Assembly (NCBI GenBank): GCA_963845755.1
Contig: CAWJTV010000029.1
Location: forward strand, 192,001-256,000
From: an uncultured Planctomycetota bacterium
GTDB taxonomy: Bacteria; Planctomycetota; Planctomycetia; Isosphaerales; Isosphaeraceae
DNA length: 64,000 nucleotides
Reading direction: 5' to 3'
Made by a program: the position numbers and the translations under genes. Below the pieces are notes generated by a model. The model was given only the letters and a program-made list of their open reading frames with translations. It made no database searches and was not told the origin of the DNA. Shown here one piece after another: positions 1,775-17,205 of the stretch; positions within the stretch are counted from its first letter, which is position 1; each line of letters begins with the position of its first letter.

Positions 1775-2300
1775 TCACTGGCCAGGGGTCCGAGTGGCCT
1801 GGAGCGCTTCGCGTGCGGCCTGGATGGTCTGATCGATATCGTCCTCGGTGTGCGCCGCGGAGACGAAGGCGGCTTCGAACTGGCTGCAAGGCAGGTAGAC
1901 GCCGCGGGCGAGCATCTCCCAGAAGAAGCGGGCGAAGCGCCGGGTGTCGCTCCGTCGCGCGTCGTCGTAGTTGCGCACGGGGCCGTCGTGGAAGAAGAGG
2001 GTCAGCATGCTGCCAACGCGCTGGACGACGTGGGGGATTCCGGCGTCGGAGGCGGCCCGGTCGAGCCCTTCAGCCAGCCGGGCCGAGAGGGCTTCGAGCC
2101 GATCGTAGGGGGAATGGTCGCGGAGCGAGCGCAGCGTGGTCAGTCCGGCGGCCATCGCCAGGGGATTGCCCGAGAGCGTGCCGGCCTGGTAGATCGGCCC
2201 GACCGGTGAGACATGGTCCATGATCGCGGCCGATGCGCCATAGGCCGCCGCGGGCAAGCCATCGCCGACCACCTTACCCAGGACCGACAGGTCGGGCGTG
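1775..2300 (-). pseudogene. hemL: Displaced 3' fragment of hemL (second copy, no 5' part)
   Basis: 1795-2300 aligns ungapped to 15891-16396 with about 12 substitutions; GKVVGDGLP instead of GKVVGGGLP; different last residues (ATRTPGQ vs ASRS). Confidence 0.95.
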
Positions 2301-2518: not shown

Positions 2519-5500
2519 TTGGCGCACTTGATCCTCCCGCTCGATGGAGTGGAGCCGGTCCTGGAACCGGGTGGGGCGAGCCGATGGAAGGAAGCGCGGC
2601 AACCGGATTACGGCAGCGAGGTCATCGTGGACATCCCCCTCGGCGAAGACTTGAGAAACGTGCAGATTCGCGCCGAGAGCAGTCAAGCGTCGTCGCCGAC
2701 AAGCCCGATCGATTTCTCCTCCGACCCTGAGTTGGTCCGGGTCGTGACCGAGGGCGAGCGGCTGGCGTTTGGCCACCAGTTCAACCCGGCGTTCGCCACG
2801 GAAATCTCGATGATCGACCCGCTGCCCCACCAGCGAATCGCGGTCTACGACCACATGCTGACGCAGCCCCGCCTACGGTTCCTCCTGGGCGACGAGCCGG
2901 GGGCCGGCAAGACCATCATGGCGGGGCTCTACATTCGCGAGATGCTGGCGCGCCGGCTGCTACGCCGAATCCTGATCGTCCCTCCAGCCGGACTGATCGG
3001 CAACTGGGAGCGCGAACTGCGCACCCTGTTCGGTCTGGACTTCGAGATCGTCTCGGGGGCGGATTCCCGTGCCGGCAACCCGTTCACGGGGCCGAAAGGC
3101 GACCAGGTCATCGTCAGTGTCGATACCCTGGCGAGCGAGCGCACTTTCGCCCGGCTCCAGGAATCCGGCGTCGAGCCATATGACCTGGCGATCTTCGACG
3201 AGGCACACAAGCTCGGCGCCGACCGCCAGCCCGACTTCACCATCCGCAAGACCGACCGCTACCAGGTCGCCGAGGTGCTGGCGGGGATCCCGGCCGGCGA
3301 CTCCCGCTGGTCGCTCGACTGGGCCTGCAACCACCTGCTGCTGCTAACGGCCACGCCCCACATGGGCAAGGACTTCCCGTACTTCTGCCTCTGGCGGCTG
3401 CTGGAACCCGAGGTCCTGGCCACTGTGGACGCCTTCAACGCTTATCCGGCCGATGCGCGACGTCGCCATTTCCTCCGCCGGACGAAGGAGGAGATGGTTA
3501 GCTTCGAGGGCAAGCGCATCTATCCAGGACGCGTCAGCGACACGCTCAGCTACGACCTATCCCAGGGGGAGATCAGCGAGCAGGCCCTCTACGACCAGAC
3601 GACCGCGTACATCGAGACCTATTACAACCGCTCTCGCATCCTCAACCGCTCGGCGGCCCGGCTGGCCATGTCCGTCTTCCAGCGCCGGCTCGCCAGCTCG
3701 ACCTACGCCCTGCTGAGGTCCTTCGAGCGCCGCCTGGGAAAGCTCGACGGTCTGATCGTCGCTATCGAGTCGGGCCGGATCACGGCCGGCGAGCTGGCGG
3801 CGATGCAACGGAAGCTGGACGACACCAAGGACGTCTTCGAGGAGGAGACTGGCGACGAGGAGACCCCCAAGGGGGACCAGGAGGAGAACGAGATCGCCGA
3901 GGCCAAGGCGCTGGGGGGCGTCGTGGCCGTCTCCCTCGCGGAGCTGATCGCCGAGCGGGACCAGGTCCGGGCGCTGCTGGAGCTGGCCAAGCAGGTGGAC
4001 GCCAGGGGGGACGAGTCGAAGTTCGACAAGCTCCGCGAGGTCCTGGGCGACCCCGAGACCCGCGGGGAGAAGCTGATCCTCTTCACCGAGCACCGCGACA
4101 CCCTCGACTACCTGGTCCGGCGACTCGAAGGGCTGGGCTTCACCGGGCGGGTGGCCCAGATTCACGGCGGGATGGACTTCCGCGAGCGGGAGCAGCAAAT
4201 CGCCTTCTTCGAGAGAAAACTCCACGACGGCGGCGCCGAGTTCATGGTATGCACCGACGCGGCCGGCGAGGGGCTCAACATGCAGTTCGCCTGGCGGCTG
4301 CTGAACTGGGACCTGCCCTGGAACCCGGCCCGGCTGGAACAGAGGATGGGCCGAATCCACCGCTACAAGCAGGAGCACGACCCGGTCACCATCGTCAACC
4401 TCCTGGCCGGCAAGACCCGCGAGGGGCGAGTGATGAAGACCCTGTTGGACAAGCTCGAACGCATCCGCAAAGAACTGGGCCGGGACAAGGTCTTCGACGT
4501 GATCGGCCGGCTGTTCGAGGGCGTTAGCATCAAGGAGTACATGGAGCGGGCGGTCACGAGCGAGGGGGCCGATGCGGCTTGCCGCGCCCTGGAGGGGACG
4601 CTCACCAAGGAGCAGGTCGAGGCCCTGGAGGCGAAGGAGCGACGGATCTATGGCGACGGTGGCGACGTGAAGGCGTACCTGGCGGCCGAGCGGGCGAAGC
4701 TGGACCGCGAGGGCTGGCGCCGGCTGTTGCCCGGCTACGTTCGCCGGTTCGTCGAGAAGTCGGCCCCGTTGCTGGACCTGGGTATCGATGGCGACCTGGA
4801 CGAGACGTTCGCTCTCAAGCCGCTCCGGCCCGGCGCCCTCGACTTCCTCTGGAACCTTCTGGAGACCTACCCGCCGGCCCGCCGGCAACGCCTGACCGTC
4901 CACAAGCCCAGGGACGCCGCCGAGGCGTTATTCCTCCATCCGGGGGAGCCGGTATTCGACCGGTGGCGGGTCCACGTTTGCGAGCGGTTCGCCGACGCCG
5001 CCCGCCGGGGCGGGGTCTTCGTGGACCCGACGGCGGCGGCAGCGTACCTGTACCACCTGGTGGCCGTGTCGGTGTCGCGGCGGGCAGACCCATCGCACCC
5101 GACGCTGGCGAGGGCCGAGGTCCTGGAACACCGGCTGGTTGGTCTGCGCCAGTCGGAGGATGGGACCGTCGAGCAGTGCCCGGTGGGGCACCTGCTGCTC
5201 TTAAAGGGCGGTCGCGGTGTGCCGGCGGACGTGAGGTCCATCGCGTCGCGTGCGGACGAGTTGGCGGCGATCGCCCAGACCTTCGCTGCGGAGAAGATTG
5301 CCCGGCCTCTGGCCGAGGGACGCCGCCGCGCGCGTCTGGAGGATCTCCCCTCACGGCTGGAGTTCGTCTCGCGGGGTTTCGAGTACCAGGACGCCGAGCT
5401 GGCCCAGGCGCGGGGGAAGCTGCGGGACAAGGCCCTGGCCGGGGACCCGAGGGCCAGGGGCGAGATGACCAAGATCAGGGACCGGCAGAAGGCGCTGTCG

Positions 5501-6019
5501 GCCCGGAGCGAGGCGGCACTGGCGGCACTGAGACGCGAACCGGAGCTAATCGGGGCCGACGAGGTCTCGTTCCTGGCCCATGCCCTGGTGGTCCCGACCG
5601 ACGACCCCGAGGAGCGGAAACGGTACGATGCGGAGATCGAGGCGATCGCGGTGAAGGTCGCCTGGGCGTTCGAGGAAGCGGCAGGCGCCATGGTCAAGGA
5701 CGTCTCCAAGCCGCACCTGGCGCGAGCGGCCGGCCTGGAGGAAAACCCAGGGTTCGACTTGCTCTCCGATCGGCCGGGGCGGTTCCAGCGCGGCATCGAG
5801 GTCAAGGGGCGGGTCGGCGTCGGCGAGGTCGAGCTGACCGAGAACGAATGGGTCAAGGCGTGCAACCAGCGCGCGCGGTACTGGCTGTACGTGGTGTTTG
5901 ATTGCGGGACGTCGCATCCCCGGCTGCTGCGCGTGCAGGATCCGTTTGGTAAACTGATCGCTAAGGCCAAAGGGAGCGTGCGGATCGCTGCGCAGGAGGT
6001 CTTCGACGCCGCGGAATGA
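2519..6019 (+). CDS. SNF2-type SF2 helicase with C-terminal DUF3883 (NOV-C, PD-(D/E)XK) nuclease; start uncertain
   Basis: GDEPGAGKT, DEAH, LLLTATPH, TDAAGEGLNMQ, WNPARLEQRMGRIHR; C-terminal GFDLLS..IEVKG..LTENEW. Confidence 0.92.
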   Translation: MAHLILPLDGVEPVLEPGGASRWKEARQPDYGSEVIVDIPLGEDLRNVQIRAESSQASSPTSPIDFSSDPELVRVVTEGERLAFGHQFNPAFATEISMIDPLPHQRIAVYDHMLTQPRLRFLLGDEPGAGKTIMAGLYIREMLARRLLRRILIVPPAGLIGNWERELRTLFGLDFEIVSGADSRAGNPFTGPKGDQVIVSVDTLASERTFARLQESGVEPYDLAIFDEAHKLGADRQPDFTIRKTDRYQVAEVLAGIPAGDSRWSLDWACNHLLLLTATPHMGKDFPYFCLWRLLEPEVLATVDAFNAYPADARRRHFLRRTKEEMVSFEGKRIYPGRVSDTLSYDLSQGEISEQALYDQTTAYIETYYNRSRILNRSAARLAMSVFQRRLASSTYALLRSFERRLGKLDGLIVAIESGRITAGELAAMQRKLDDTKDVFEEETGDEETPKGDQEENEIAEAKALGGVVAVSLAELIAERDQVRALLELAKQVDARGDESKFDKLREVLGDPETRGEKLILFTEHRDTLDYLVRRLEGLGFTGRVAQIHGGMDFREREQQIAFFERKLHDGGAEFMVCTDAAGEGLNMQFAWRLLNWDLPWNPARLEQRMGRIHRYKQEHDPVTIVNLLAGKTREGRVMKTLLDKLERIRKELGRDKVFDVIGRLFEGVSIKEYMERAVTSEGADAACRALEGTLTKEQVEALEAKERRIYGDGGDVKAYLAAERAKLDREGWRRLLPGYVRRFVEKSAPLLDLGIDGDLDETFALKPLRPGALDFLWNLLETYPPARRQRLTVHKPRDAAEALFLHPGEPVFDRWRVHVCERFADAARRGGVFVDPTAAAAYLYHLVAVSVSRRADPSHPTLARAEVLEHRLVGLRQSEDGTVEQCPVGHLLLLKGGRGVPADVRSIASRADELAAIAQTFAAEKIARPLAEGRRRARLEDLPSRLEFVSRGFEYQDAELAQARGKLRDKALAGDPRARGEMTKIRDRQKALSARSEAALAALRREPELIGADEVSFLAHALVVPTDDPEERKRYDAEIEAIAVKVAWAFEEAAGAMVKDVSKPHLARAAGLEENPGFDLLSDRPGRFQRGIEVKGRVGVGEVELTENEWVKACNQRARYWLYVVFDCGTSHPRLLRVQDPFGKLIAKAKGSVRIAAQEVFDAAE

Positions 6020-6050
6020 GCCATTTCCCCCGCTAATCAGTGGTTGACTT

Positions 6051-6104
6051 ACTCGTTCCCACGCTCCGCGTGGGAATGCCGTCTTCGACGCTCCGCGTCG
6101 TCTT
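6051..6104 (+). repeat. REP/REPIN arm, left (54-bp perfect inverted repeat with 6703-6756)
   Basis: ACTCGTTCCCACGCTCCGCGTGGGAATGCC... contains hairpin TTCCCACGC-TCC-GCGTGGGAA. Confidence 0.95.
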
Positions 6105-6138
6105 TCTTCTTCGACAACGTTCGTCTTCATGAGTCGAG

Positions 6139-6681
6139 ATGCCTGAAATGGGACGCAGTCGCTACAAGTTCGGGGAAGCGGGGTTCCCGCACTTTGTGAC
6201 CTGTACAGTCGTTGGCTGGCTCCCCGTGTTCACAAGGCGCGAAACCGTTCAGATCCTTCTGGATTCCTGGCAGTTTCTCCAGGATCAGAATCGCGTGGTG
6301 CTCCTGGGCTACGTGGTACTCGAGAACCATATCCACTTCATCGCCACGGCCGAGGACCTGTCGACCGACGTTGGCGATTTCAAGTCGTATACGGCACGAC
6401 GGATCATCGACTACCTCAGTGAGCGACACGTGCGGACTCTGCTGGATGGCCTGGCGTATCACAAAGCCCGGCACAAAAGCGACCGCGAGTTTCAACTCTG
6501 GCAGGAAGGAAGCCATCCGAAAATCATCGAGACCGAGGCGATGATGAGCCAGAAGTTGAGCTACATCCACGACAACCCGGTGAAGCGGGGCTACGTGGAC
6601 GATCCGACGCATTGGAGATACTCCAGTGCCCGGAACTATGCGAAGATGGAGTCCTTGGTTTCGGTGACAACCGACTGGTAA
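6139..6681 (+). CDS. REP-associated tyrosine (HUH/Y1) transposase, RAYT
   Basis: HFVT.T, YVVLENHIH (HUH), FKSYTAR, WQEGSH, YIHDNPV..G.V....W.YSS; flanked by REP arms. Confidence 0.93.
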   Translation: MPEMGRSRYKFGEAGFPHFVTCTVVGWLPVFTRRETVQILLDSWQFLQDQNRVVLLGYVVLENHIHFIATAEDLSTDVGDFKSYTARRIIDYLSERHVRTLLDGLAYHKARHKSDREFQLWQEGSHPKIIETEAMMSQKLSYIHDNPVKRGYVDDPTHWRYSSARNYAKMESLVSVTTDW

Positions 6682-6702
6682 CTCGGTGCGAAGCCGGGGC
6701 CG

Positions 6703-6756
6703 AAGACGACGCGGAGCGTCGAAGACGGCATTCCCACGCGGAGCGTGGGAACGAGT
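6703..6756 (-). repeat. REP/REPIN arm, right
   Basis: Exact reverse complement of 6051-6104. Confidence 0.95.
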
Positions 6757-6808
6757 TCACAAGATTGCTGCGCAGGAGGTCTTCGCAACGGCGGAGAGGA
6801 TGTGAACG

Positions 6809-7084
6809 ATGGACGCAGCACAGAACGAAGAGATCGCCGAAATCTTCAACCGGGTCAAGAATTGGTCTCCGCCTCAGCGGATCACCCTGGCCCGGCGCAT
6901 TCTCGAGACGCTGGAAGCGTCCGCCACCGCGGAAGCTGGGAGCCAACCGAAGATTGAGGAGCCGAAGCGGGGCTGGCCCGTCGAGAGGGTGCTGGGGCTG
7001 CTCAAGACCGATCGCGAGCCGCCGGACGACGAGGAATGCCGCCGGATCATCGAGGAGGAACGATGGAAGAAGTACGGCTCTTGA
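6809..7084 (+). CDS. Small antitoxin-like protein (paralog 1, no intact toxin downstream)
   Basis: Similar to 7165-7500 at both ends (W(S)P.Q.I.L.R.IL..LE; TD..PP.DEE..RI.EEER..K). Confidence 0.7.
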   Translation: MDAAQNEEIAEIFNRVKNWSPPQRITLARRILETLEASATAEAGSQPKIEEPKRGWPVERVLGLLKTDREPPDDEECRRIIEEERWKKYGS

Positions 7085-7164
7085 GCGGCTCCTGACCGAG
7101 GGGGCCGATCGAGATGGACGGATCCCTGTCCAGGAATTCTCTGCGGCCCGGAGGGAGATTCACG

Positions 7165-7500
7165 ATGAGCCTTGCCGAAACTCATGAGATTGGAGAAGTC
7201 TGGGACCGCATCAACGTGTGGTCGCCGACTCAGAAAATCGCCCTGATGCGCAAGATTCTGGACTCGCTGGAAGACGGGAGTCCGACACCGGTCCCGCTAG
7301 CGGAGTCGGAATGGGGTCAGTCCGCGGCTCGATCACCCGGGCTGCCCGAGCGGGATCGAACCCAAGCCACCGGGAGCAATCAACCGCCGAAGAAAACGCT
7401 GGCCGACTTCCTCGGCGCGTTCCAGACGGACGGTCCTCCGCCGACCGACGAAGAGGTCCAGCGCATCCTTGAGGAGGAACGGATGAGGAAATCCGGATGA
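7165..7500 (+). CDS. Small antitoxin-like protein (paralog 2) coupled to PIN gene
   Basis: GGAGGGAG RBS before ATG 7165; ATGA overlap with the PIN gene. Confidence 0.72.
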   Translation: MSLAETHEIGEVWDRINVWSPTQKIALMRKILDSLEDGSPTPVPLAESEWGQSAARSPGLPERDRTQATGSNQPPKKTLADFLGAFQTDGPPPTDEEVQRILEEERMRKSG

Positions 7501-7925
7501 AACGACTCCTGCTCGATACGAACATCCTGCTCGACGTGCTCTTGCGTCGCCTGCCCTGGCAGGCCGAGGCCGAGGCGATACTCGAAGCCTTCCGGAGCGG
7601 ACAACTGGTTGTTGTCGTCTCACCGTTGACGATCGCCAACGCGTTCTACGTGGGCCGCCGGAGCGTGGGGACGGTCGCCACCAGAGTTTGGGTTCGCGAG
7701 TGCCTCGATGCGTTCGAGATCGTCCCGCTGGATCTGGCCATCCTCAAGGCTGCCGACCAGTTGCCCGGCTCGGATTTCGAGGATGGGATTCAGATCGCAT
7801 CGGCCGTCAATTCGGGCGTTGATGCCATCGTGACGCGTGATCCAAAGGGTTTCGCCGGTTCCTCGGTCCCTGTCCTCTCTCCCGCCGAATTGCTGGCCCT
7901 CCTGCCGAAGGACGACCATGCCTGA
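7497..7925 (+). CDS. PIN-domain (VapC-like) ribonuclease toxin
   Basis: LLDTNILLD, DFEDGIQIASA, IVTRD.KGF. Confidence 0.9.
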   Translation: MKRLLLDTNILLDVLLRRLPWQAEAEAILEAFRSGQLVVVVSPLTIANAFYVGRRSVGTVATRVWVRECLDAFEIVPLDLAILKAADQLPGSDFEDGIQIASAVNSGVDAIVTRDPKGFAGSSVPVLSPAELLALLPKDDHA

Positions 7926-10900
7926 AACCGACAAGCCCCGTCTGATCGAAGTGGCCTTCCCGCTCAAGCAGGCGTCGCTGGACTCGGTCCATGAGAAGAA
8001 CGTCCGGCATGGGCACATCTCGACGCTGCACATCTGGCCCGCCCGGCGACCGCTGGCGGCGTGCCGGGCGGCGCTGATCGCCACGCTGCTGCCTGATCCG
8101 GGGACGCCGCAGGCGAGGAAGGAACTGCTGGAGAAGATCGGCGGGAAGGTGGTCACCGAGGTCCAGAAGAAGAAGGTCGGCGGCAAGACGGTCGAGGTTG
8201 TCAAGGAGCGGACCGAGGGGGGCGTCCTGCGTTGGGGTAACGAGAACAGCCCGGACATGGACTGGTTCCGCGAGGAGATCAAGAAAGCGTACGGCGGGCG
8301 TGCGCCGAGGGTGCTCGACCCGTTCGCGGGCGGCGGTGCGATTCCCCTGGAGGCCATGCGGCTGGGCTGTGAGGCAACGGCCATCGACATCAATCCGGTC
8401 GCCTGGTTCATCCTCAAGTGCACCCTGGAGTATCCCCAGAAACTCGCCGGTCAGGTCCGACCGCTACCGAAATTCGCGCTCGAGTCCGCCGAGTTCATGG
8501 AGGCGTTCCTCAAGGGCTCGGGGAAGCTGACCAAGGCCCAGGTCGCAAAGGAATTGCCGAAGTACCAGCGCGGGCTGTTCCCGCCGCCCGATGTGGACCT
8601 GTCCTGGCACGTCCGGGCCTGGGGCTGGTGGGTGCTCCAGCGGCGCGGAAAGACCTGGAGCGGTTCTACCCCACCATCGACGGCAAGCTCACGGTCGCCT
8701 ACCTCTGGGCGCGGACGGTGACGTGCAAGAACTGCCGGGCAACCATTCCCCTGCTCAAGACTCGCTGGCTGTGCAAGAAGGAGAACAAACGGGTCGTCCT
8801 GACGATGGAGCCGAACGCAGACAAGACCGGCGTGGTCTTCGGCGTTCAAGCCGACGTGCCGGTTGTGGGTGGCAACGGGGCGCAAGGGGGGAGTACGACA
8901 AGCAGGTTGGACAGGGCACGATGTCGCGGTCGGGCGCCACCTGTCCGAGTTGCGGCGTCCCGAGCATGACGATGGAGGACATCCGCCTACAAGGTCGAGC
9001 CGGTCGGCTTGGTAGCGTCATGACCGCCGTCGTTGTGGACGGGGCGAGTGGCAAGGATTATCGGCCGCCAGTCCAGGATGACAGCCGGGCGGTTGACCAG
9101 GCTCAACCCGAGCTGGATCGAGTGTATAGGGACATCCCTTTCGGCCTGCCGGATGAGCCGATTGCCGGGAAAGACGCTCTCGGCATCCGCGTGCCCCTGT
9201 ATGGTCTGGATCGTTGGCGAAAACTGTTTACTCCCCGCCAACTATTCTCCATGGGAACATTCGTAAAGCACACGCGAGCAGCAAGAGAGGTCATTGAAAC
9301 CCTGGGACATCCACCGGAGTGGACGGAGGCGATAATCGCCTACCTCGCGCTGGCCCTCGACAGGCTTGCGGATCGTTGCAGCTCACTCTGCCAACCCGAT
9401 CCCAGTCCGACCCAGAGCGGCGTGATGCACACTTTCTCGAAGTTCGCGTTCCCATGAACTGGGATTTTATCGAGGGTGTACCTATTTCGGGGGCGAGCGG
9501 AGGCTTTTCGGGAGCATTGGAGTGGGTAGCGAAAGTCATCGAACAGAACAGCTTATCTGTTGCATGTCCGGCACCTGATATCGAGCATTCCCATGCTACA
9601 AGAAGTCTGGACAAGGCTTTTGACCTTATCGCAACCGATCCGCCTTACTATGACGCTATACCATATTCTGATCTCATGGATTTCTTCTATATATGGCTCC
9701 GGCGGACCCTGAACGGCCTGAACCCGGAGATTGGCTCCGCCTTCAGCGAAGCCCTGTCCCCGAAATGGAATCATGATGCAAATAACGGTGAGTTGATTGA
9801 TGATCCAAGTCGTTTCGGAGGAGACGCAACGAGGTCCAAGAGAGCCTACGAAGAGGGGATGTGCCTGGTCTTCGAGAACTGCTCTCGCTCGCTCGAAGCC
9901 GGTGGTCGTCTCGTTATCGTCTTCGCCCACAAGCAGCCCGACGCCTGGGAGACGCTGGTCTCAGCGATCATCCGGGCCGGTTTCGTTGTCGATGGAAGCT
10001 GGCCGATCCAGACCGAAAGGTTCGCGCGCACGCGAGCCCTCTCCTCTGCCGCTCTCTCCTCATCCGTCTGGCTCGTCTGCAAGAAGCGCCCCGAAGCAGC
10101 CCGCCCCGGCTGGGACAATCGCGTCCTCGACGAGATGCGACAGAACATACACGCCCGTCTCCGCGACTATTGGGACGCGGGCATTCGGGGTCCCGACTTC
10201 GTGTGGGCGGCGACCGGTCCGGCGATGGAGGCGTACAGCAAGCACCCGGTCGTGAAGAAGGCCAACGAACCGGGCAAGCTCATGGAGGTCGCCGAGTTCC
10301 TCCCGCCGTCCGCCGCCTGGTGGTCGATTTCGTCGTCGGCCGGGTCTTGACCGGCGAGCAGGGTGACGAGTCGGATGCGAGCGGGCTCGACGACGTCACG
10401 ACCTACTACATCCTGCACCGCCACGACTTCGGTATGGAGGACGCACCGATCGGGGCCTGCATCCTCTACGCCGTCTCGTGCAACCTGTCGGACAACGACC
10501 TGGCCAGCCGCCACGAGATCCTCCTCCGCACTGGCGGGTTGTCCGCCCCCGAGGAAGATGGCGAGGACGTTGACGCCGAGGAGGGGGCCGAATCCGACAC
10601 CGACGAGGAGCCCGAGGAGGGGACCGGCAGCACGGTCAAGCTGCGGCCCTGGCACCAGCGGAAGCGGAAGACGATGGGCTATGATGCGGAGGGCCGGCCC
10701 GCGCCGTTGATCGACCAGGTCCATCGCCTGATGCAGCTCTGGAAGGCGGGCGACGTGGTCAAGGTGGACGACTACCTCGACGCCCGAGCGCTCCGCAAGA
10801 ACACCCTGTTCCTCCACCTGCTCCAGGCCCTGATCGAACTGGCCGGCGAAGGGACCGAGGAGCGGGTCATCCTGGAGAACATCAGCAACCACCTGGCGGC

Positions 10901-10970
10901 CCGGGGCGTGGCGCCGGTGCGCACGGTTGCCCTACCCGGTTTCGGCGATGGCGACGAGAATGATGGGTGA
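7918..10970 (+). CDS. DUF1156 domain N6-adenine DNA methyltransferase (about 4 apparent frameshifts near 8643, 8885, 9448, 10302)
   Basis: RLIEVAFPL, LHIWPARRPLAACRA, VLDPFAGGGAIP, CxxC motifs, TDPPYYDAIPYSDL; pieces in successive frames join into one protein. Confidence 0.88.
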
Positions 10971-11009
10971 GAATCCACGAGCCGTTGATATCTCGCCGGA
11001 GGCTGTCAC

Positions 11010-11060
11010 ATGACCGAATCCCTGCACCTCAAGCGATTCAAGAACTTCCAGGACGCGTAG
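11010..11060 (+). pseudogene. 16-codon stub resembling the N-terminus of an ABC/AAA (OLD/SMC-like) ATPase
   Basis: GGAGG RBS then MTESLHLKRFKNFQDA-stop; no Walker A follows. Confidence 0.4.
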
Positions 11061-11268
11061 TTTCTGCAAAGTTGGGGCTACTCCAACCAAGGCGCGTGTT
11101 GCTTGCGTTCCGTCATGGATGGACGATCCCGGAACAGGGGCAATGGCCGGAGAGCGGCCAGGGCTCAGGGTCGAAACGCCAAGGCGATGAAGTCGCGACA
11201 AGAGTGCGCGAAACAGATGATAAGCTTGAAGCATTCCCTCTGGTCACTGGCCGTCGGGCAACATCATC

Positions 11269-11898
11269 ATGGCTTTTCTCGACTACCATCGTACTGTGGT
11301 CGGCTACCATGGCACGTCATCGAAGATCGCCGATGCCCTGGTGGAAGGGACGCCGTTCAGGGAAAGCGCCGACGTCGATGAATGGTTGGGCACCGGCGTC
11401 TATTTTTGGGAATATGCGCCCAAGCAAGCATGGCGGTGGGCGAAGCGATTCAACCAGATCAGCGACCCAGCCGTGGTCGGCGCGATGATCCGGCTGGGCA
11501 ATTGCTTCGACCTGCTGGATTCGATAAATATCGAGGCGCTGCAAAAGGCCAAAGATGGTATGGTGAGGCTGATGAGGCGGGAAGGCGTGAAGGTTCCCGA
11601 GAACAAGCGCATATACAAAAATCTGGACTGCGCCGTCTTCAACTACTTCTATCAAACGGTAGAGGATGAGGGCGGGCCGAAAATCGACAGTGCGAGGGCG
11701 GCCTATGTCCCGACGGAAAGCAGAAAAAGAATCTGGCGTGCGAGCTGGATCTACAAAGACACCCACATCCAAGTCTGCGTCCGCAACCAAAGCAACATCC
11801 TCGCCGTCTGGCACGCGCACCCCGACGGGCGCTACGGCAAAGTCAAAGAGGCGTCCGAAAGCGGTGGCGGCGTCGGCGGCGCCGAAGGTGGGCAGTGA
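11269..11898 (+). CDS. Hypothetical protein with ADP-ribosyltransferase-like motifs
   Basis: VVGYHGT, WLGTGVYFWE, LDCAVF, HIQVCVRN; visibly lower GC than flanks. Confidence 0.7.
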   Translation: MAFLDYHRTVVGYHGTSSKIADALVEGTPFRESADVDEWLGTGVYFWEYAPKQAWRWAKRFNQISDPAVVGAMIRLGNCFDLLDSINIEALQKAKDGMVRLMRREGVKVPENKRIYKNLDCAVFNYFYQTVEDEGGPKIDSARAAYVPTESRKRIWRASWIYKDTHIQVCVRNQSNILAVWHAHPDGRYGKVKEASESGGGVGGAEGGQ

Positions 11899-11902
11899 TT
11901 AC

Positions 11903-12019
11903 ATGCGCATTGCCAAGAGGATCGGCAAGATGTCGGGACCGGCGTTTCTGTCGTCGCTTCGGCGGGCGGGGATCATCACGGCGGAAGGTGCCTTGCAGGC
12001 GAAATACAAGAAAAAGTAG
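11903..12019 (+). CDS. Small basic partner protein (start uncertain, may extend to about 11834)
   Basis: MRIAKRIGKMSGPAFLSSLRRAGIITAEGALQAKYKKK immediately after the ART-like gene. Confidence 0.45.
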   Translation: MRIAKRIGKMSGPAFLSSLRRAGIITAEGALQAKYKKK

Positions 12020-12056
12020 GAGACTCCTCGCTGATCGCCACCGCCCGACGCTCCCC

Positions 12057-12085
12057 CTCGTTCCCACGCGGGGCGTCGGAACGAG
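12057..12085. repeat. Collapsed/degenerate REP of the 6051 family
   Basis: CTCGTTCCCACGCGGGGCGTCGGAACGAG matches the outer ends of both REP arms. Confidence 0.75.
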
Positions 12086-12138
12086 CTTAAAGCCGTTATG
12101 CGGCGCCGGTCAGCCGCAGCACCGGTTCGCCGGCTACT

Positions 12139-12405
12139 TTGTTGCGACTGCAATCCCCGGCCGAAGGACGATGCTTGGTCACGCTCGATCTGGATTTCTC
12201 GAACCCGTTCATCTTCCCGCCGGACCAGTACGCCGGAATCGCTGTCCTGCGTCTGCCCCGCAGGGTCTCACCGAATGATCTGTATGCCACGGTGACGGCT
12301 TTGGTCGCCGCTCTGGCCCGCGATTCCATTTTGGGAAAACTCTGGATCGTCGAACGACATCGCATCCGCGTGTATTTGCCGGATGAGGGGACCCCCGGAC
12401 TTTGA
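12139..12405 (+). pseudogene. 5'-truncated DUF5615 (PIN-like/Mut7-C) gene
   Basis: EGRCLVTLDLDF..P....GIAVLR and G.LWIVE..RIR present; the N-terminal xxDEN motif is missing. Confidence 0.7.
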
Positions 12406-12484
12406 CGCCAAAGACGCTCCGCCGGGAAATCCTGGAGACCCACTGAGTCATCGAGTCCCGCCCCAGTTGGAAGAAAGCCCCACC

Positions 12485-15400
12485 ATGACCAAGCTCCCCT
12501 GGACGCCCTGGCATCAGGTGGTCGAGCTCCGCCCCGACGTCCGCTCGGGCGAGCTGTCGCTGTCGCAGTTCGCCGCCGATCTGTACGACGTGATGATGGA
12601 CAAGGGAACGCCGGTCTATCGCACCCCCGCCGAGTTCTTCGCGCTGACCTTCCCGACGTACAACCTCCGCGAACTGGCCAAGGACGTGGTCCACCGGCTC
12701 GCCGGGAAGAACGACAAGACCATCCGACAGCTCGAACTGACCTACGGCGGCGGCAAGACGCACACCCTGATCACGCTGCTGCACCTGGTCCGCGACCCCA
12801 GGGGGCTGCCCGACCTGCCTGCCGTCCACGAGTTCCTCCAGCACATCGGGATGACGCCCCCCGCGACCCGGGTCGCCGCCCTGGCGTTCGACAAGCTCGA
12901 CGCCGAGAAGGGGATGGAGGTCAAGGGGCCGGCCGGCGAGAAGCGGTGGTTGCGGAATCCCTGGAGCGTCCTAGCCTTCCAGATTGCCGGCGCCGACGGA
13001 CTGCGGCTGCTCCACGCGGACGGCGACGACGCCGAGCGGGAGAGCGCCCCGGCAGAGAACCTGCTGGTCGATCTGCTGGCGATCCCCGGCAACAATGATC
13101 TCGCGACGTTGATCCTGATCGACGAGGTCCTGATGTACGCCCGCGAGAAGGTCGGGCTCGACCCGGCCTGGCGCAGCCGCCTGGTGAACTTCTTCCAGTA
13201 TCTCACCCAGGCCGCCACGAAGATCAACCGTTGCGCCGTCGTGGCGTCCCTGCTCGCGAGCGAGCCCAGCAAGAGCGACACGCTGGGCAAGGAGATCGCT
13301 CTGGAACTGTTTACCATCTTCCGTCGCGAGCGGGAGGAGGGCATCCAGCCCGTCCTGAAGGACGACGTTGCGGAGGTCCTACGCCGCCGCTTCTTCCAGC
13401 CCGATTCGATCCGAGACCGCGAGTCGTTTCGCTCGCACGCCGTCGCCGCGCTCAAGGGGGTGACCGACCACGACGACGCGACCGCCAAGGACGGCAAGAC
13501 CGCCGAGGAGCGGTTCCTCAAGAGCTACCCGTTCCACCCCGATCTGACGGAGGTCCTCTACACCAAGTGGACCCAGCTCGAGGGGTTCCAGCGGACCCGG
13601 GGCATCCTGCGGACGTTCGCCCTCGCATTGCGGGATGCCGTCGGCTGGGACCAGTCCCCACTGATCGGGGCGAACGTGTTCCTGAACGAGCCGGGCAAGG
13701 TGGAAGTGTCGGCGGCGGCGCGGGAACTGGCGAACGTCGCCGGGAGCGAGGAGTACGAGGGCAAGAAGCAGGACTGGACCGGCATCCTGGAGGGCGAACT
13801 GAGCAAGGCCCGCGACATCCAGGGCGAGACCTCTGGTCTGAGCCACCGCGAGGTTGAACAGGCGGTCTTCGCCACGTTCCTGCACTCGCAGCCGGTCGGC
13901 CAGAAGGCGGCACTTCGCGAGCTGACGGTCCTCCTCGGCCCGACCCGGCCCGACAAGATCGGGCTCGTCAAGGCCCTGCTTCGTTGGGTGGACACGTCGT
14001 ACTTCCTGGACGACCAATTCACCAACGAAGCGGGGGTCCAGGCCGACGGCCGGCGGGACGTCCCGAAGTCGTGGCGGTTGGGGTCGAAGCCAAACCTGAT
14101 CCAGATGCACCAGGATGCCTGCACGCGGGTCTCCGGCGAACTGGTCGAGGCGAAGCTGATCAAGACCATCGAGACGCTCAAGTCGTTGACGGCAGGCACG
14201 GCGGGCGACGGTTATAAGGTGAAGGTCCACAACCTGCCCGAGAAGCCTAACGATGTCACCGACGACGGCGACTTCCACTACGCCGTGCTGGAGCCGAGGG
14301 CTGCGTCCACGTCCGGAAACCCCAGCGCCGAGTCACGGCGATATCTCGACGAGACGACCGGGCCGGACCGCCCCCGCGTCTATCGCAACGCGGTGGTCCT
14401 GGGCGTGCCGTCGCGGGACGGGCTGGAGGTCGCCCGCGGCCGCATCCGCGACTACCTGGGCTGGGAGGAGGTCCAGTCGCAGTTGAATGACCAGGAGGTG
14501 GACCTGATCCGCCGGGAAACACTCGCGGCGAACCTGGAAGCGGCGAAGAAGAAGGTCCCCGAGTCCGTCCAGCAGGCGTACAACATCGTGGTCACCGTGT
14601 CCGAGGGCAATGACGTCCAGGCGTTCAAGTTGACGCTGGACACGGCGCGCCCGCTGTTCGACCAGATCAAGTCTGACCCTCGCTCTCGAATTCAGGAGAC
14701 GGCGGTCAGCTACGAGGCGCTGCTCCCCGAGGGTCCCTACGACCTGTGGCGGTCAGGGGAGACGGCCCGCCGCGTCAAGGACCTGGTCGGGGCCTTCGCG
14801 CAGTTCCCGCACCTGCCGAAGATGCTCAACCGGCAGGCCATCCTCGACACGCTCGTCCAGGGCTGCGAGGAGGGCCAGTTCGTCTTACGCCTGACGCGCC
14901 CCGACCGCTCGACCCGGACGATCTGGCGGCAGCAGCCGGACGAGGCCGACCTGAAGAACACGTCGATGGAGGTCGTGCTCCCCGAGTCGGCCGAGTTATC
15001 CGAGATCGAGCCGGCGCTGCTGGCCCCCAACGTGCTGCCCGATCTCTGGAAGAGTTCAGACATCACTCTCGCCGACATTCGCGGCTACTTCTCGGGCGGC
15101 AAGGTGATCAAGATCGCCCGTCAGGGCTACGACGAGCCAGTCACGATCCCCAAGGCTCCGCGATCCATCGTGGATGAGACGATCACCAGGGCGGTGAAGG
15201 AGGGCAACCTCTGGCTCACGGACGGGCCGACGAGCCTATACGCCGAGGATGTCCCCGCAGGACTCCTATCCGACGAGGCGCGGTTGCAGGCACCGCCATC
15301 GCCGATCCCCGCGAAGGACGTGCTGCCCGAGAGCCTGCCGGATGCCTGGGCTGGCGACGTCGCTACGGCACATGCGATCTCCGAGGCGCTCTCCGCCAAG

Positions 15401-15814
15401 GCGGGCAGGGCGCTGCCGTGGGCGACGGTCCGCACCGCCATCGACGGGGCATTCCACGGCCGGCTCCTGGAGCGGACCGTGGACTCCGGATCCTGGCCAT
15501 GCGAATTCGACGGGACGCGCCAGGTGAAGGTGCGGGTCCCCGAGTTGAAGCCGATCATCGACATCAACAAGCCCAAGGACGAACAGCCGAAACCCCCTGC
15601 CGGTGTTCTGGTGGCCTCGGCGTACCTCAAGCCTGGGGAGGTCCAGGACCTCGCGGAAGTGATCGGCGACGTGGGCGCGGCGGCCGTGGGGTACGACCTG
15701 AAGATCATATTGAGGATTGAGGTGGGAGCGGTCGGGAAGCGACCCCCGGATGACATCATCGCCAAGATCGACTCCAAGCTTGGCGAGGTGTCGAAAGATT
15801 TCAAACTTACCTGA
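12485..15814 (+). CDS. DUF499 family AAA+ ATPase
   Basis: PWHQVV.LRPDV..G.....FAADL, Walker A TYGGGKTH, Walker B LILIDEV, SYPFHP, FQRTRGILR. Confidence 0.9.
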   Translation: MTKLPWTPWHQVVELRPDVRSGELSLSQFAADLYDVMMDKGTPVYRTPAEFFALTFPTYNLRELAKDVVHRLAGKNDKTIRQLELTYGGGKTHTLITLLHLVRDPRGLPDLPAVHEFLQHIGMTPPATRVAALAFDKLDAEKGMEVKGPAGEKRWLRNPWSVLAFQIAGADGLRLLHADGDDAERESAPAENLLVDLLAIPGNNDLATLILIDEVLMYAREKVGLDPAWRSRLVNFFQYLTQAATKINRCAVVASLLASEPSKSDTLGKEIALELFTIFRREREEGIQPVLKDDVAEVLRRRFFQPDSIRDRESFRSHAVAALKGVTDHDDATAKDGKTAEERFLKSYPFHPDLTEVLYTKWTQLEGFQRTRGILRTFALALRDAVGWDQSPLIGANVFLNEPGKVEVSAAARELANVAGSEEYEGKKQDWTGILEGELSKARDIQGETSGLSHREVEQAVFATFLHSQPVGQKAALRELTVLLGPTRPDKIGLVKALLRWVDTSYFLDDQFTNEAGVQADGRRDVPKSWRLGSKPNLIQMHQDACTRVSGELVEAKLIKTIETLKSLTAGTAGDGYKVKVHNLPEKPNDVTDDGDFHYAVLEPRAASTSGNPSAESRRYLDETTGPDRPRVYRNAVVLGVPSRDGLEVARGRIRDYLGWEEVQSQLNDQEVDLIRRETLAANLEAAKKKVPESVQQAYNIVVTVSEGNDVQAFKLTLDTARPLFDQIKSDPRSRIQETAVSYEALLPEGPYDLWRSGETARRVKDLVGAFAQFPHLPKMLNRQAILDTLVQGCEEGQFVLRLTRPDRSTRTIWRQQPDEADLKNTSMEVVLPESAELSEIEPALLAPNVLPDLWKSSDITLADIRGYFSGGKVIKIARQGYDEPVTIPKAPRSIVDETITRAVKEGNLWLTDGPTSLYAEDVPAGLLSDEARLQAPPSPIPAKDVLPESLPDAWAGDVATAHAISEALSAKAGRALPWATVRTAIDGAFHGRLLERTVDSGSWPCEFDGTRQVKVRVPELKPIIDINKPKDEQPKPPAGVLVASAYLKPGEVQDLAEVIGDVGAAAVGYDLKIILRIEVGAVGKRPPDDIIAKIDSKLGEVSKDFKLT

Positions 15815-15865: not shown

Positions 15866-15883
15866 CTAGATTTGCAAATCTAG
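15866..15883. promoter_or_regulatory. Perfect 18-bp palindrome CTAGATTTGCAAATCTAG overlapping the hemL stop
   Basis: Self-complementary, between convergent genes; function unknown. Confidence 0.45.
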
Positions 15884-17205
15884 CTCCGGCTGGCCTGGAG
15901 CGCTCCGCGAGCGGCCTGGATGGTCAGATCGATATCGTCCTCGGTGTGCGCCGCGGAGACGAAGGCGGCTTCGAACTGGCTGCACGGCAGGTAGACGCCG
16001 CGGGCGAGCATCTCCCAGAAGAAGCGGGCGAAGAGCCGGGTGTCGCTCCGTCTCGCGTCGTCGTAGTTGCGCACGGGGCCGTCGTGGAAGAAGAGGGTCA
16101 GCATGCTGCCGACGCGCTGGACGACGTGGGGGATTCCGGCGTCGGAGGCGGCCCGGTCGAGCCCTTCAGCCAGCCGGGCCGAGAGGGCTTCGAGCCGATC
16201 GTAGGGGGGCTGGTCGCGAAGCGAGCGCAGCGTGGTCAGTCCGGCGGCCATCGCCAGGGGATTGCCCGAGAGCGTGCCGGCCTGGTAGATCGGCCCGACC
16301 GGTGAGACATGGTCCATGATCGCGGCCGAGGCGCCATAGGCCGCCGCGGGCAAGCCACCGCCGACCACCTTACCCAGGACCGACAGGTCGGGCGTGATCC
16401 CATACAGGCCCTGGGCGCCGCCATAAGCCACGCGGAAGCCGGTCATCACCTCGTCGAAGATGAGCAAGGCTCCGTGTTTCCGGGTCAAGTCTCGGATCGC
16501 AGCGAGATAACCCACTTCCGGCGGGACCAGCCCCATGTTGCCGGCGATCGGCTCGAGCAAGACCGCGGCGACCTGGCCGGGGAATCGCTCCAGGGCCTCA
16601 GCCACCGCAGCCGCGTCGTTGAAGGGGCAGAGGATCGTGTCCTGCGTGGTGCCCTCGGTCACCCCGGGACTGTTGGGTGTCCCGAGCGTCGTGGCGGCCG
16701 AGCCGGCCTGGACCAGCAAGGCGTCGATGTGGCCGTGGTAGTGTCCGCTCATCTTGATGATCTTCGATCGGCCCGTGACGCCCCGTGCCACCCGGACGGC
16801 GGACATCGCCGCCTCGGTCCCCGACGAGACAAAACGCACCTTCTCGATCGACGGGACGGCTTCGGCCACCATCTCCGCGATCTCGACTTCGCGCAGGGTC
16901 GGCGCGCCGAAACTCGACCCCAACTCCAGCGCCTCGGCCACGGCCGCGCGGACCTCGGGATGGACATGCCCCAGGATCATAGGGCCCCACGATCCGATAT
17001 AATCAATATATTTATGATCATCAATGTCGTAAAGGTAGGCCCCTTCGGCGCGCGCGATGAATGGCGGCTCGCCGCCGACGGCGCCGAACGCCCGAGCCGG
17101 GCTGTTCACGCCGCCGGGGATCACGCGATTGGCCCGCGCGAAGGCCACGCGGCTCTGGGTGAGGTGGAAATCGGGTCGGGAGAGCGCGGGCGTCTCGGGC
17201 ATCAT
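15880..17205 (-). CDS. hemL: Glutamate-1-semialdehyde 2,1-aminomutase
   Basis: IPGGVNSPARAF, SSGTEA, FDEVMTGFR, GKVVGGGLP, YQAGTLSGNP. Confidence 0.97.
   Translation of the reverse strand: MMPETPALSRPDFHLTQSRVAFARANRVIPGGVNSPARAFGAVGGEPPFIARAEGAYLYDIDDHKYIDYIGSWGPMILGHVHPEVRAAVAEALELGSSFGAPTLREVEIAEMVAEAVPSIEKVRFVSSGTEAAMSAVRVARGVTGRSKIIKMSGHYHGHIDALLVQAGSAATTLGTPNSPGVTEGTTQDTILCPFNDAAAVAEALERFPGQVAAVLLEPIAGNMGLVPPEVGYLAAIRDLTRKHGALLIFDEVMTGFRVAYGGAQGLYGITPDLSVLGKVVGGGLPAAAYGASAAIMDHVSPVGPIYQAGTLSGNPLAMAAGLTTLRSLRDQPPYDRLEALSARLAEGLDRAASDAGIPHVVQRVGSMLTLFFHDGPVRNYDDARRSDTRLFARFFWEMLARGVYLPCSQFEAAFVSAAHTEDDIDLTIQAARGALQASRS

Follow-up and report, generated by a model that had tools for sequence, protein, structure and literature searches.

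The helicase-end repeats that punctuate a planctomycete defence locus are probably scars of integrase-free recombination in the variable slot between the helicase and methylase genes of an Hma system. In the sequence, a RAYT gene bounded by REP elements separates the live helicase end from its orphan copy. Behind them comes a second unit of a probable helicase tail, an antitoxin gene and a PIN gene, which we read as older, and stubs of this kind, derived from either gene end, also occur in related loci. Such stacking with terminal scars recurs in related clusters and likely represents a known kind of event. We favor one-sided homologous recombination completed by an illegitimate joint over an ordered, integron-like array because stub lengths vary, both gene ends are used and most cassettes lack a stub. 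The accessible parts of the papers on these hotspots do not settle how extra genes come to lie inside Hma, BREX and restriction loci.

An Hma locus within a hemL duplication

The window, a 64,000-nt stretch of a genome assembly from an uncultured planctomycete, contains three genes, in order and on one strand, whose best PADLOC matches are HmaA, HmaB and HmaC, in agreement with Pfam. By these matches the locus is an Hma system of helicase, methylase and ATPase (the accessible text of PMC12839542 also names it a type-1 BR system), and an anti-phage role is predicted from its gene content. The closest named relatives of the locus are planctomycete MAGs. Its features, with the evidence for each, are as follows.

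1789..2300, - strand: last 512 nt of hemL as an orphan 3' fragment, with 97% identity to the intact copy, marking the left island boundary (alignment)
2519..6019, + strand: hmaA, SNF2 helicase with a C-terminal DUF3883/NOV_C domain, start codon uncertain (Pfam; PADLOC HmaA E=7.5e-148 over residues 65-1161 of 1176)
5983..6019, + strand: tail 1, the live helicase 3' end, IAAQEVFDAAE-stop (direct sequence reading and comparison)
6020..6050, + strand: spacer of 31 nt, outside the duplication
6051..6104, + strand: left REP arm, 54 nt, hairpin-forming (repeat search and fold; 139 arm matches in the genome)
6139..6681, + strand: RAYT, REP-associated tyrosine transposase (NCBIfam NF047646, 95.9 bits against a cut-off of 80; tblastn)
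6703..6756, - strand: right REP arm, a perfect inverted copy of the left arm (repeat search)
6763..6805, + strand: tail 2 (copy 2), orphan helicase end IAAQEVFATAERM-stop, holding the purine-rich leader of antitoxin 1 (repeat comparison, tail profiles, leader test)
6809..7084, + strand: putative antitoxin 1 of 91 aa, now without its partner toxin (function proposed from its place ahead of PIN genes)
7081..7100, + strand: PIN toxin start stub, 20 nt, overlapping the antitoxin 1 stop (alignment)
7119..7164, + strand: copy 3, probably a decayed helicase tail in the role of antitoxin 2 leader; marginal when taken alone (alignment, nulls, profiles)
7165..7500, + strand: putative antitoxin 2, 111 aa, paralogue of antitoxin 1 (PF09720 below cut-off; alignment)
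7497..7925, + strand: PIN-domain (VapC-like) toxin (PF13470, 57.2 bits)
7918..10350, + strand: hmaB, DUF1156 adenine methylase, split over at least three reading frames in the assembly (Pfam; PADLOC)
12383..15814, + strand: hmaC, DUF499 ATPase (Pfam; PADLOC)
15880..17205, - strand: intact hemL, right bound of the island (profile matches)

The hemL duplication that had been proposed is real: 512 nt are shared between 1789-2300 and 15885-16396, both on the minus strand, with 14 differences, around a 13.6-kb Hma island. At the 14 differing sites outgroups agree with the intact gene at 6-8 and with the fragment at 2-5. Three tandem 23-nt repeats (2341-2406) lie just outside the hemL fragment, at the left edge of the island.

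The PADLOC matches to HmaB are spread over three frames, for which a pseudogene and an assembly error are both possible, and the methylase frame shifts alike in the assemblies of relatives. Three small ORFs between methylase and ATPase (10967-12278) form a second embedded slot, within which 11269-11898 gives weak PADLOC matches to PD-T4-9_A (E=1e-7) and none in Pfam. The same genome carries a second, divergent Hma system (L143, G000:C25:130000-149000) with a 1.5-kb insert that lacks a stub, and a genome of the same genus has its Hma locus at another place, with another cassette. No relatives of the helicase or the RAYT were found on viral contigs.

Embedded genes are a published property of Hma systems. 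In the accessible text of two reports (Payne et al., bioRxiv 10.1101/2024.01.29.577857; PMC11232893), inserts are given for 62.7% of 1,485 systems in the former and about 66.5% in the latter, PIN proteins and mobility genes occur among them, and the helicase-methylase interval is an insertion hotspot. The locus shares with those systems its three core genes and its PIN and mobility genes; what differs is that terminus-specific stubs, and their link to long intervals, are counted in the present analysis. The accessible text of Payne et al. contains neither the word 'recombination' nor the word 'integron', and we found no joint-level mechanism in it.

Copies of the helicase end between the inserted genes

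The helicase end at 5983-6015 reappears at 6763-6795 with 28 of 33 positions identical, including a 19-nt perfect core, and this copy 2 begins 6 nt after the right REP arm (6703-6756), all as originally predicted. The copy is also unique, in that a search of both strands of the 14.27-Mb genome for matches of at least 27/33 returned only copy 2 apart from the tail itself. Copy 2 reads IAAQEVFATAERM-stop at 6764-6805, and its first 23 nt differ from tail 1 at one site. Tails 1 and 2 are 85% alike and helicase-like at both ends, as two alleles would be. The stretches 5916-6066, 6747-7008 and 7056-7206 are matched, at 0-1 differences, by short contigs of a single study, in runs that are perhaps not independent of the assembly; none of these contigs has 31 letters on each side of the joint between REP arm and tail 2, and no joint removing the element plus one tail is listed among them. 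No RNA sequencing runs containing the locus were listed.

The third copy proposed at 7119-7152 stood in part. It is identical at 25 of 35 positions with one gap, but without the gap it reaches 20/33 (at 7121), less than the 21/33 that arises by chance at 6901. Against tail 1, the gapped score is equalled in 59-244 of 3000 genomic windows and in 15-69 of 1000 shuffles, and DNA and peptide profiles of relatives' helicase tails recovered copy 2 and missed copy 3. Anchored on the antitoxin start and set against sites matched for Shine-Dalgarno and ATG, the match is equalled by 6-7 of 3000 when compared with tails 1 and 2, and by 34 of 1500 when compared with the junctions of relatives. In our own judgement, copy 3 is rather probably the decayed tail of a second tail-antitoxin-PIN unit. 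A profile match in locus L004 lies inside an ORF and was rejected as chance.

The genes behind the orphan tails are related to one another, contrary to the claim that each copy precedes a different kind of cassette. Antitoxins 1 and 2 are paralogous (34.5% over 113 aa), and the whole of tail, antitoxin and PIN start at 6763-7100 aligns end to end with 7121-7510, with PIN reduced to a 20-nt stub after antitoxin 1. In 11 related loci a helicase tail precedes a member of the antitoxin 1 family. Compared with the helicase-antitoxin junctions of those loci, the 45-nt leader of antitoxin 1 scores above all 1500 control leaders; tail 2 is thus an ordinary helicase-antitoxin junction. These 11 relatives are distant, and the comparison included no conspecific genome. 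By direct reading, the last codons of the helicase contain the purine-rich leader of the next gene.

Related arrangements occur elsewhere. Locus L007 (G012:C104) has four tandem paralogous antitoxin genes between helicase and methylase, some with PIN start stubs, and one full PIN gene. In fetched DNA, L106 (G546:C3), L108 (G533:C204) and L070 (G044:C6) contain units of helicase tail, antitoxin and PIN with the helicase body absent or a fragment and the methylase absent, and at L106 the unit is flanked by direct repeats of about 180 nt.

Gene-end stubs in homologous helicase-methylase intervals

The survey used longer stretches, one locus per place, for 155 loci including the window, with profiles of the helicase end and the methylase start. 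A helicase end and a full methylase were present in 114 loci including the window, and the contig-truncated or broken rest was left out; L144, in which the helicase is broken, was read by hand and stands outside the counts. Among the 113 other complete intervals, 30 had fewer than 150 nt between the genes and 83 had an insert. Gene-end stubs were present in 9 of the 83: four contain a helicase tail (L109, L182, L206, L209) and seven a methylase head (L008, L109, L129, L169, L192, L200, L209), two of these having both, so that five of the nine scarred intervals are head-only and two tail-only. The expectation that homologous loci with cassettes would contain terminal copies was therefore borne out for these nine, whose stubs are terminus-specific and mostly in long intervals, and failed for the 74 of 83 insert-bearing intervals without a stub.

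Stubs were found in 6 of 11 intervals of at least 3 kb, 2 of 8 of 2-3 kb, 1 of 43 of 1-2 kb and 0 of 21 of 0.15-1 kb. The difference between 8/19 at 2 kb or more and 1/64 at 0.15-2 kb gives a Fisher p of 1.5e-5, which is overstated as kin are not independent. The copied segments are specific to the gene termini, with the last 150 nt of the helicase found in 4/83 and the first 150 nt of the methylase in 7/83, against 1 of 474 tests for six inner control segments. Stubs are a countable footprint, in that about one in nine insert-bearing intervals, and the stated 8 of 19 long ones, retain a piece of a flanking gene, and this footprint points to one-sided recombination together with selection that keeps the leader of the next gene. 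A literature search by title and start of abstract among openly accessible papers returned no description of gene-end stubs in Hma intervals.

No two loci agree in joint position or stub length, and with helicase stubs of about 30 to 230 nt a fixed site is absent; the integron-like site that had been envisaged finds no counterpart. Several stubs finish in a stop-start overlap with the next ORF (L109, L182). The layout at L109 and L209 is helicase, cassette A, a methylase head joined to a helicase tail, cassette B, methylase. The clearest serial case is L144 (G037:C50), where two methylase-head/helicase-tail joints divide three cassettes; at one joint both genes share a 5-nt overlap, and an in-frame fusion ORF of 116 aa is formed at one of the two. 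The pairing of tail and cassette is also broken, with the window's tail peptide preceding another cassette at L065 and that cassette following another tail at L002. Genome-wide, gene tails were not in excess among nearby repeats (67, compared with 59-69 for inner segments of 6343 ORFs), which argues that the stub effect is local to such loci.

First surveys, in which a tail copy was found in the window only (1/61 tested), were set aside because flanks were short, methylase-head stubs had been scored as methylase and an orphan tail at L069 had been scored as the real one. A 40/50 tail match at L184 fell below the set threshold and was left out of the count.

The RAYT element is likely a newcomer

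The inserted element has the features of a REPtron, namely a RAYT family protein and inverted, multicopy, hairpin-forming REP arms. By tblastn this RAYT is the sole full-length close copy in the genome, in which the REP arm has 139 matches and forms 53 doublets. Within 1.2-kb flanks, Hma genes were present at 0/17 other loci of this RAYT family, which makes the REPtron a likely newcomer to the locus. The clade occupies different sites in relatives, with one shared flank among 18 loci, and one distant RAYT was found on plasmids.

A recombination model and its rivals

Under the model we favor, DNA from a sister allele would enter by homologous crossover in one conserved gene, with the other side joined at a non-homologous point within the last codons of the resident helicase; an identical product would result if two tandem Hma copies collapsed by deletion. 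Joints sparing the final 30-230 nt would persist because this stretch contains a ribosome-binding site or a stop-start overlap for the next gene. Two such events may have occurred here, one placing the REPtron before antitoxin 1 and the other placing antitoxin 1 with its PIN stub before antitoxin 2, and the REPtron would be the newcomer. Since either gene end can be stranded, array order alone gives no age. We infer the crossover; neither a donor allele, in which the helicase is followed directly by this REPtron, nor an empty-site allele was found. Further findings count against the recombination model: tails and cassettes are not inherited as pairs (L065, L002), gene tails show no genome-wide excess among nearby repeats, and the joint 6 nt from the REP end must be a chance outcome, yet three other REP elements abut similarly.

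That last point bears on a rather unlikely alternative, in which the RAYT itself made one of the two joints: an HUH transposase would nick beside a REP arm and transfer the end into a gene terminus, with the other side completed by homology or copying. The outcome would be an extended, imperfect duplication of the target, flush with one arm. The accessible text on E. coli TnpA-REP describes cleavage 5' or 3' of REP and strand transfer in vitro (PMC3333891). Of 46 RAYT loci, 29 including the window had recognisable arm ends (17 were left out), and a non-REP direct repeat abuts an arm at 0 nt in 2 of the 28 others: at L240, a 39-nt repeat of the tail of an FGE-sulfatase-domain gene in the window's layout, and at L244, a 147-nt duplication (98%) across the stop/start of an efflux gene pair. 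Flank repeats at L228, L234 and L252 were rejected as REP arrays. Random 700-nt pseudo-elements gave such repeats in 23/3000 cases, 5 without tandem arrays (binomial p=0.02 or 0.001), but the thresholds were taken from the window after the fact, the null is one genome not matched for intergenic position, and a looser criterion (score 44, 12 nt) was reached by 26/1500 pseudo-elements. Among the REP doublets of the genome, 120-nt flanks revealed a repeat near an arm end in the window only, and wider flanks added one of the 52 others (C5), with a 62-nt duplication from the arm end. Weighing against the RAYT as the maker of the joint, 26 of the 28 RAYT loci and 51 of the 52 doublets lack such a repeat, no RAYT was noted alongside the other Hma stubs, and the duplicated copies in the window differ at 5 of 33 sites. 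The wider proposal that this RAYT clade moves its own gene, inserting one REP end at a gene terminus and completing the second side by homology so as to leave a 30-150-nt target duplication abutting a REP arm, seems to us a little more doubtful again. A search among openly accessible papers returned none combining a REPtron with a target duplication. If true, the proposal would mean that RAYTs, regarded as non-jumping, have a way to spread, and that an enzyme exists for some of the integrase-free additions of cassettes to defence loci; should the duplications next to REP arms hold up, the long-open question of RAYT mobility becomes testable on defined substrates.

The original prediction was of a dedicated, polar, integron-like accretion in which each incoming cassette carries a helicase tail and older tails are pushed downstream in time order, and this now appears very improbable. 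Similarity does drop with distance at this locus, from 28/33 to a gapped 25/35, but a gradient cannot rest on two points. Tail stubs do recur (4/83 intervals, and twice in L144), and orphan units of tail, antitoxin and PIN exist without a helicase body in the fetched DNA of L106 and L108. That each cassette brings a tail finds no support in the 74 stubless inserts or in the four tandem antitoxins of L007, which show no tail copies; chronological order with fixed polarity is undercut by the excess of head-only over tail-only stubs, as head-only intervals (5/9) fit addition from the other end equally well, and by the variable joint positions. No integrase was found near the array among the 21 longer ORFs scanned at 1-21 kb of the window. 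Similarly improbable, in our view, is an isolated cis duplication by slippage or repair that made copy 2, with copy 3 a Shine-Dalgarno look-alike. The single difference in the first 23 nt of copy 2, and the failure of copy 3 in the tail profiles and its marginal score when unanchored, would suit such an origin. Against it, copy 2 sits where a helicase-to-antitoxin junction normally lies, copy 3 holds up against the Shine-Dalgarno-matched null (the 6-7/3000 above) and comes after a PIN stub, much as a head stub precedes other joints, and such stubs recur in relatives.

Relation to known systems

The claim of an undescribed mechanism is not sustained, as both long variable target duplications at stop/start sites and displacement of gene tips are already in print (accessible text of PMC2853133 and PMC2935791). 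The accessible text of Furuta et al. (2010, PMC2853133) describes insertion with long target duplication, in which long variable direct repeats of more than 30 bp arise without an integrase, often across a translation start or stop; the inserts are restriction-modification genes with no other mobile element, the empty site is known, and copies are identical at 43-47 of 46-47 positions. With a 33-nt repeat at 780-nt spacing, the present locus agrees with that class in repeat length (>30 bp) and insert size (<20 kb) but differs in that its insert is a transposase (RAYT) gene and its copies are 85% alike. In rhs loci, according to the accessible text of Jackson et al. (2009, PMC2935791), homologous recombination installs a new 3' end and shifts its predecessor downstream, so that arrays of orphan ends build up. 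There the tip is the cargo under selection and the array has a polarity, whereas at the present locus the stub serves as a leader or is non-coding baggage, and stubs come from both gene ends. In an rhs-type array the orphan pieces combine a conserved core with distinct functional tips; the stubs at this locus are 11-13 codons without a start and are displacement-like only.

An integron is a row of cassettes behind a fixed gene. The locus shares that arrangement, but an integrase nearby, a constant recombination site and polar addition were not found there.

The inserted element itself resembles REPtrons with REPINs, as represented in the accessible text of two reports (PMC3333891; bioRxiv 10.1101/2021.07.10.451892), in having a single RAYT gene between inverted REP arms and numerous arm doublets genome-wide. 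The accessible text of the second (Bertels and Rainey) portrays RAYTs as non-jumping residents of a fixed site, whereas this RAYT clade occurs at varying sites in relatives, sometimes within long duplications.

REP doublets of about 300 nt that keep only the 3' end of the RAYT occur at G000 C28:386235, C30:185574, C40:54176, C42:402612, C5:108909 and others, and several of them are nested in a larger shared element with short terminal inverted repeats. A miniature element thus appears to spread a deleted REPtron. Two REPtrons from different genera, at L238 and L240, each follow an FGE-sulfatase-like gene; these genes are homologous (72% over 1.17 kb), and a tail copy is present in L240 only.
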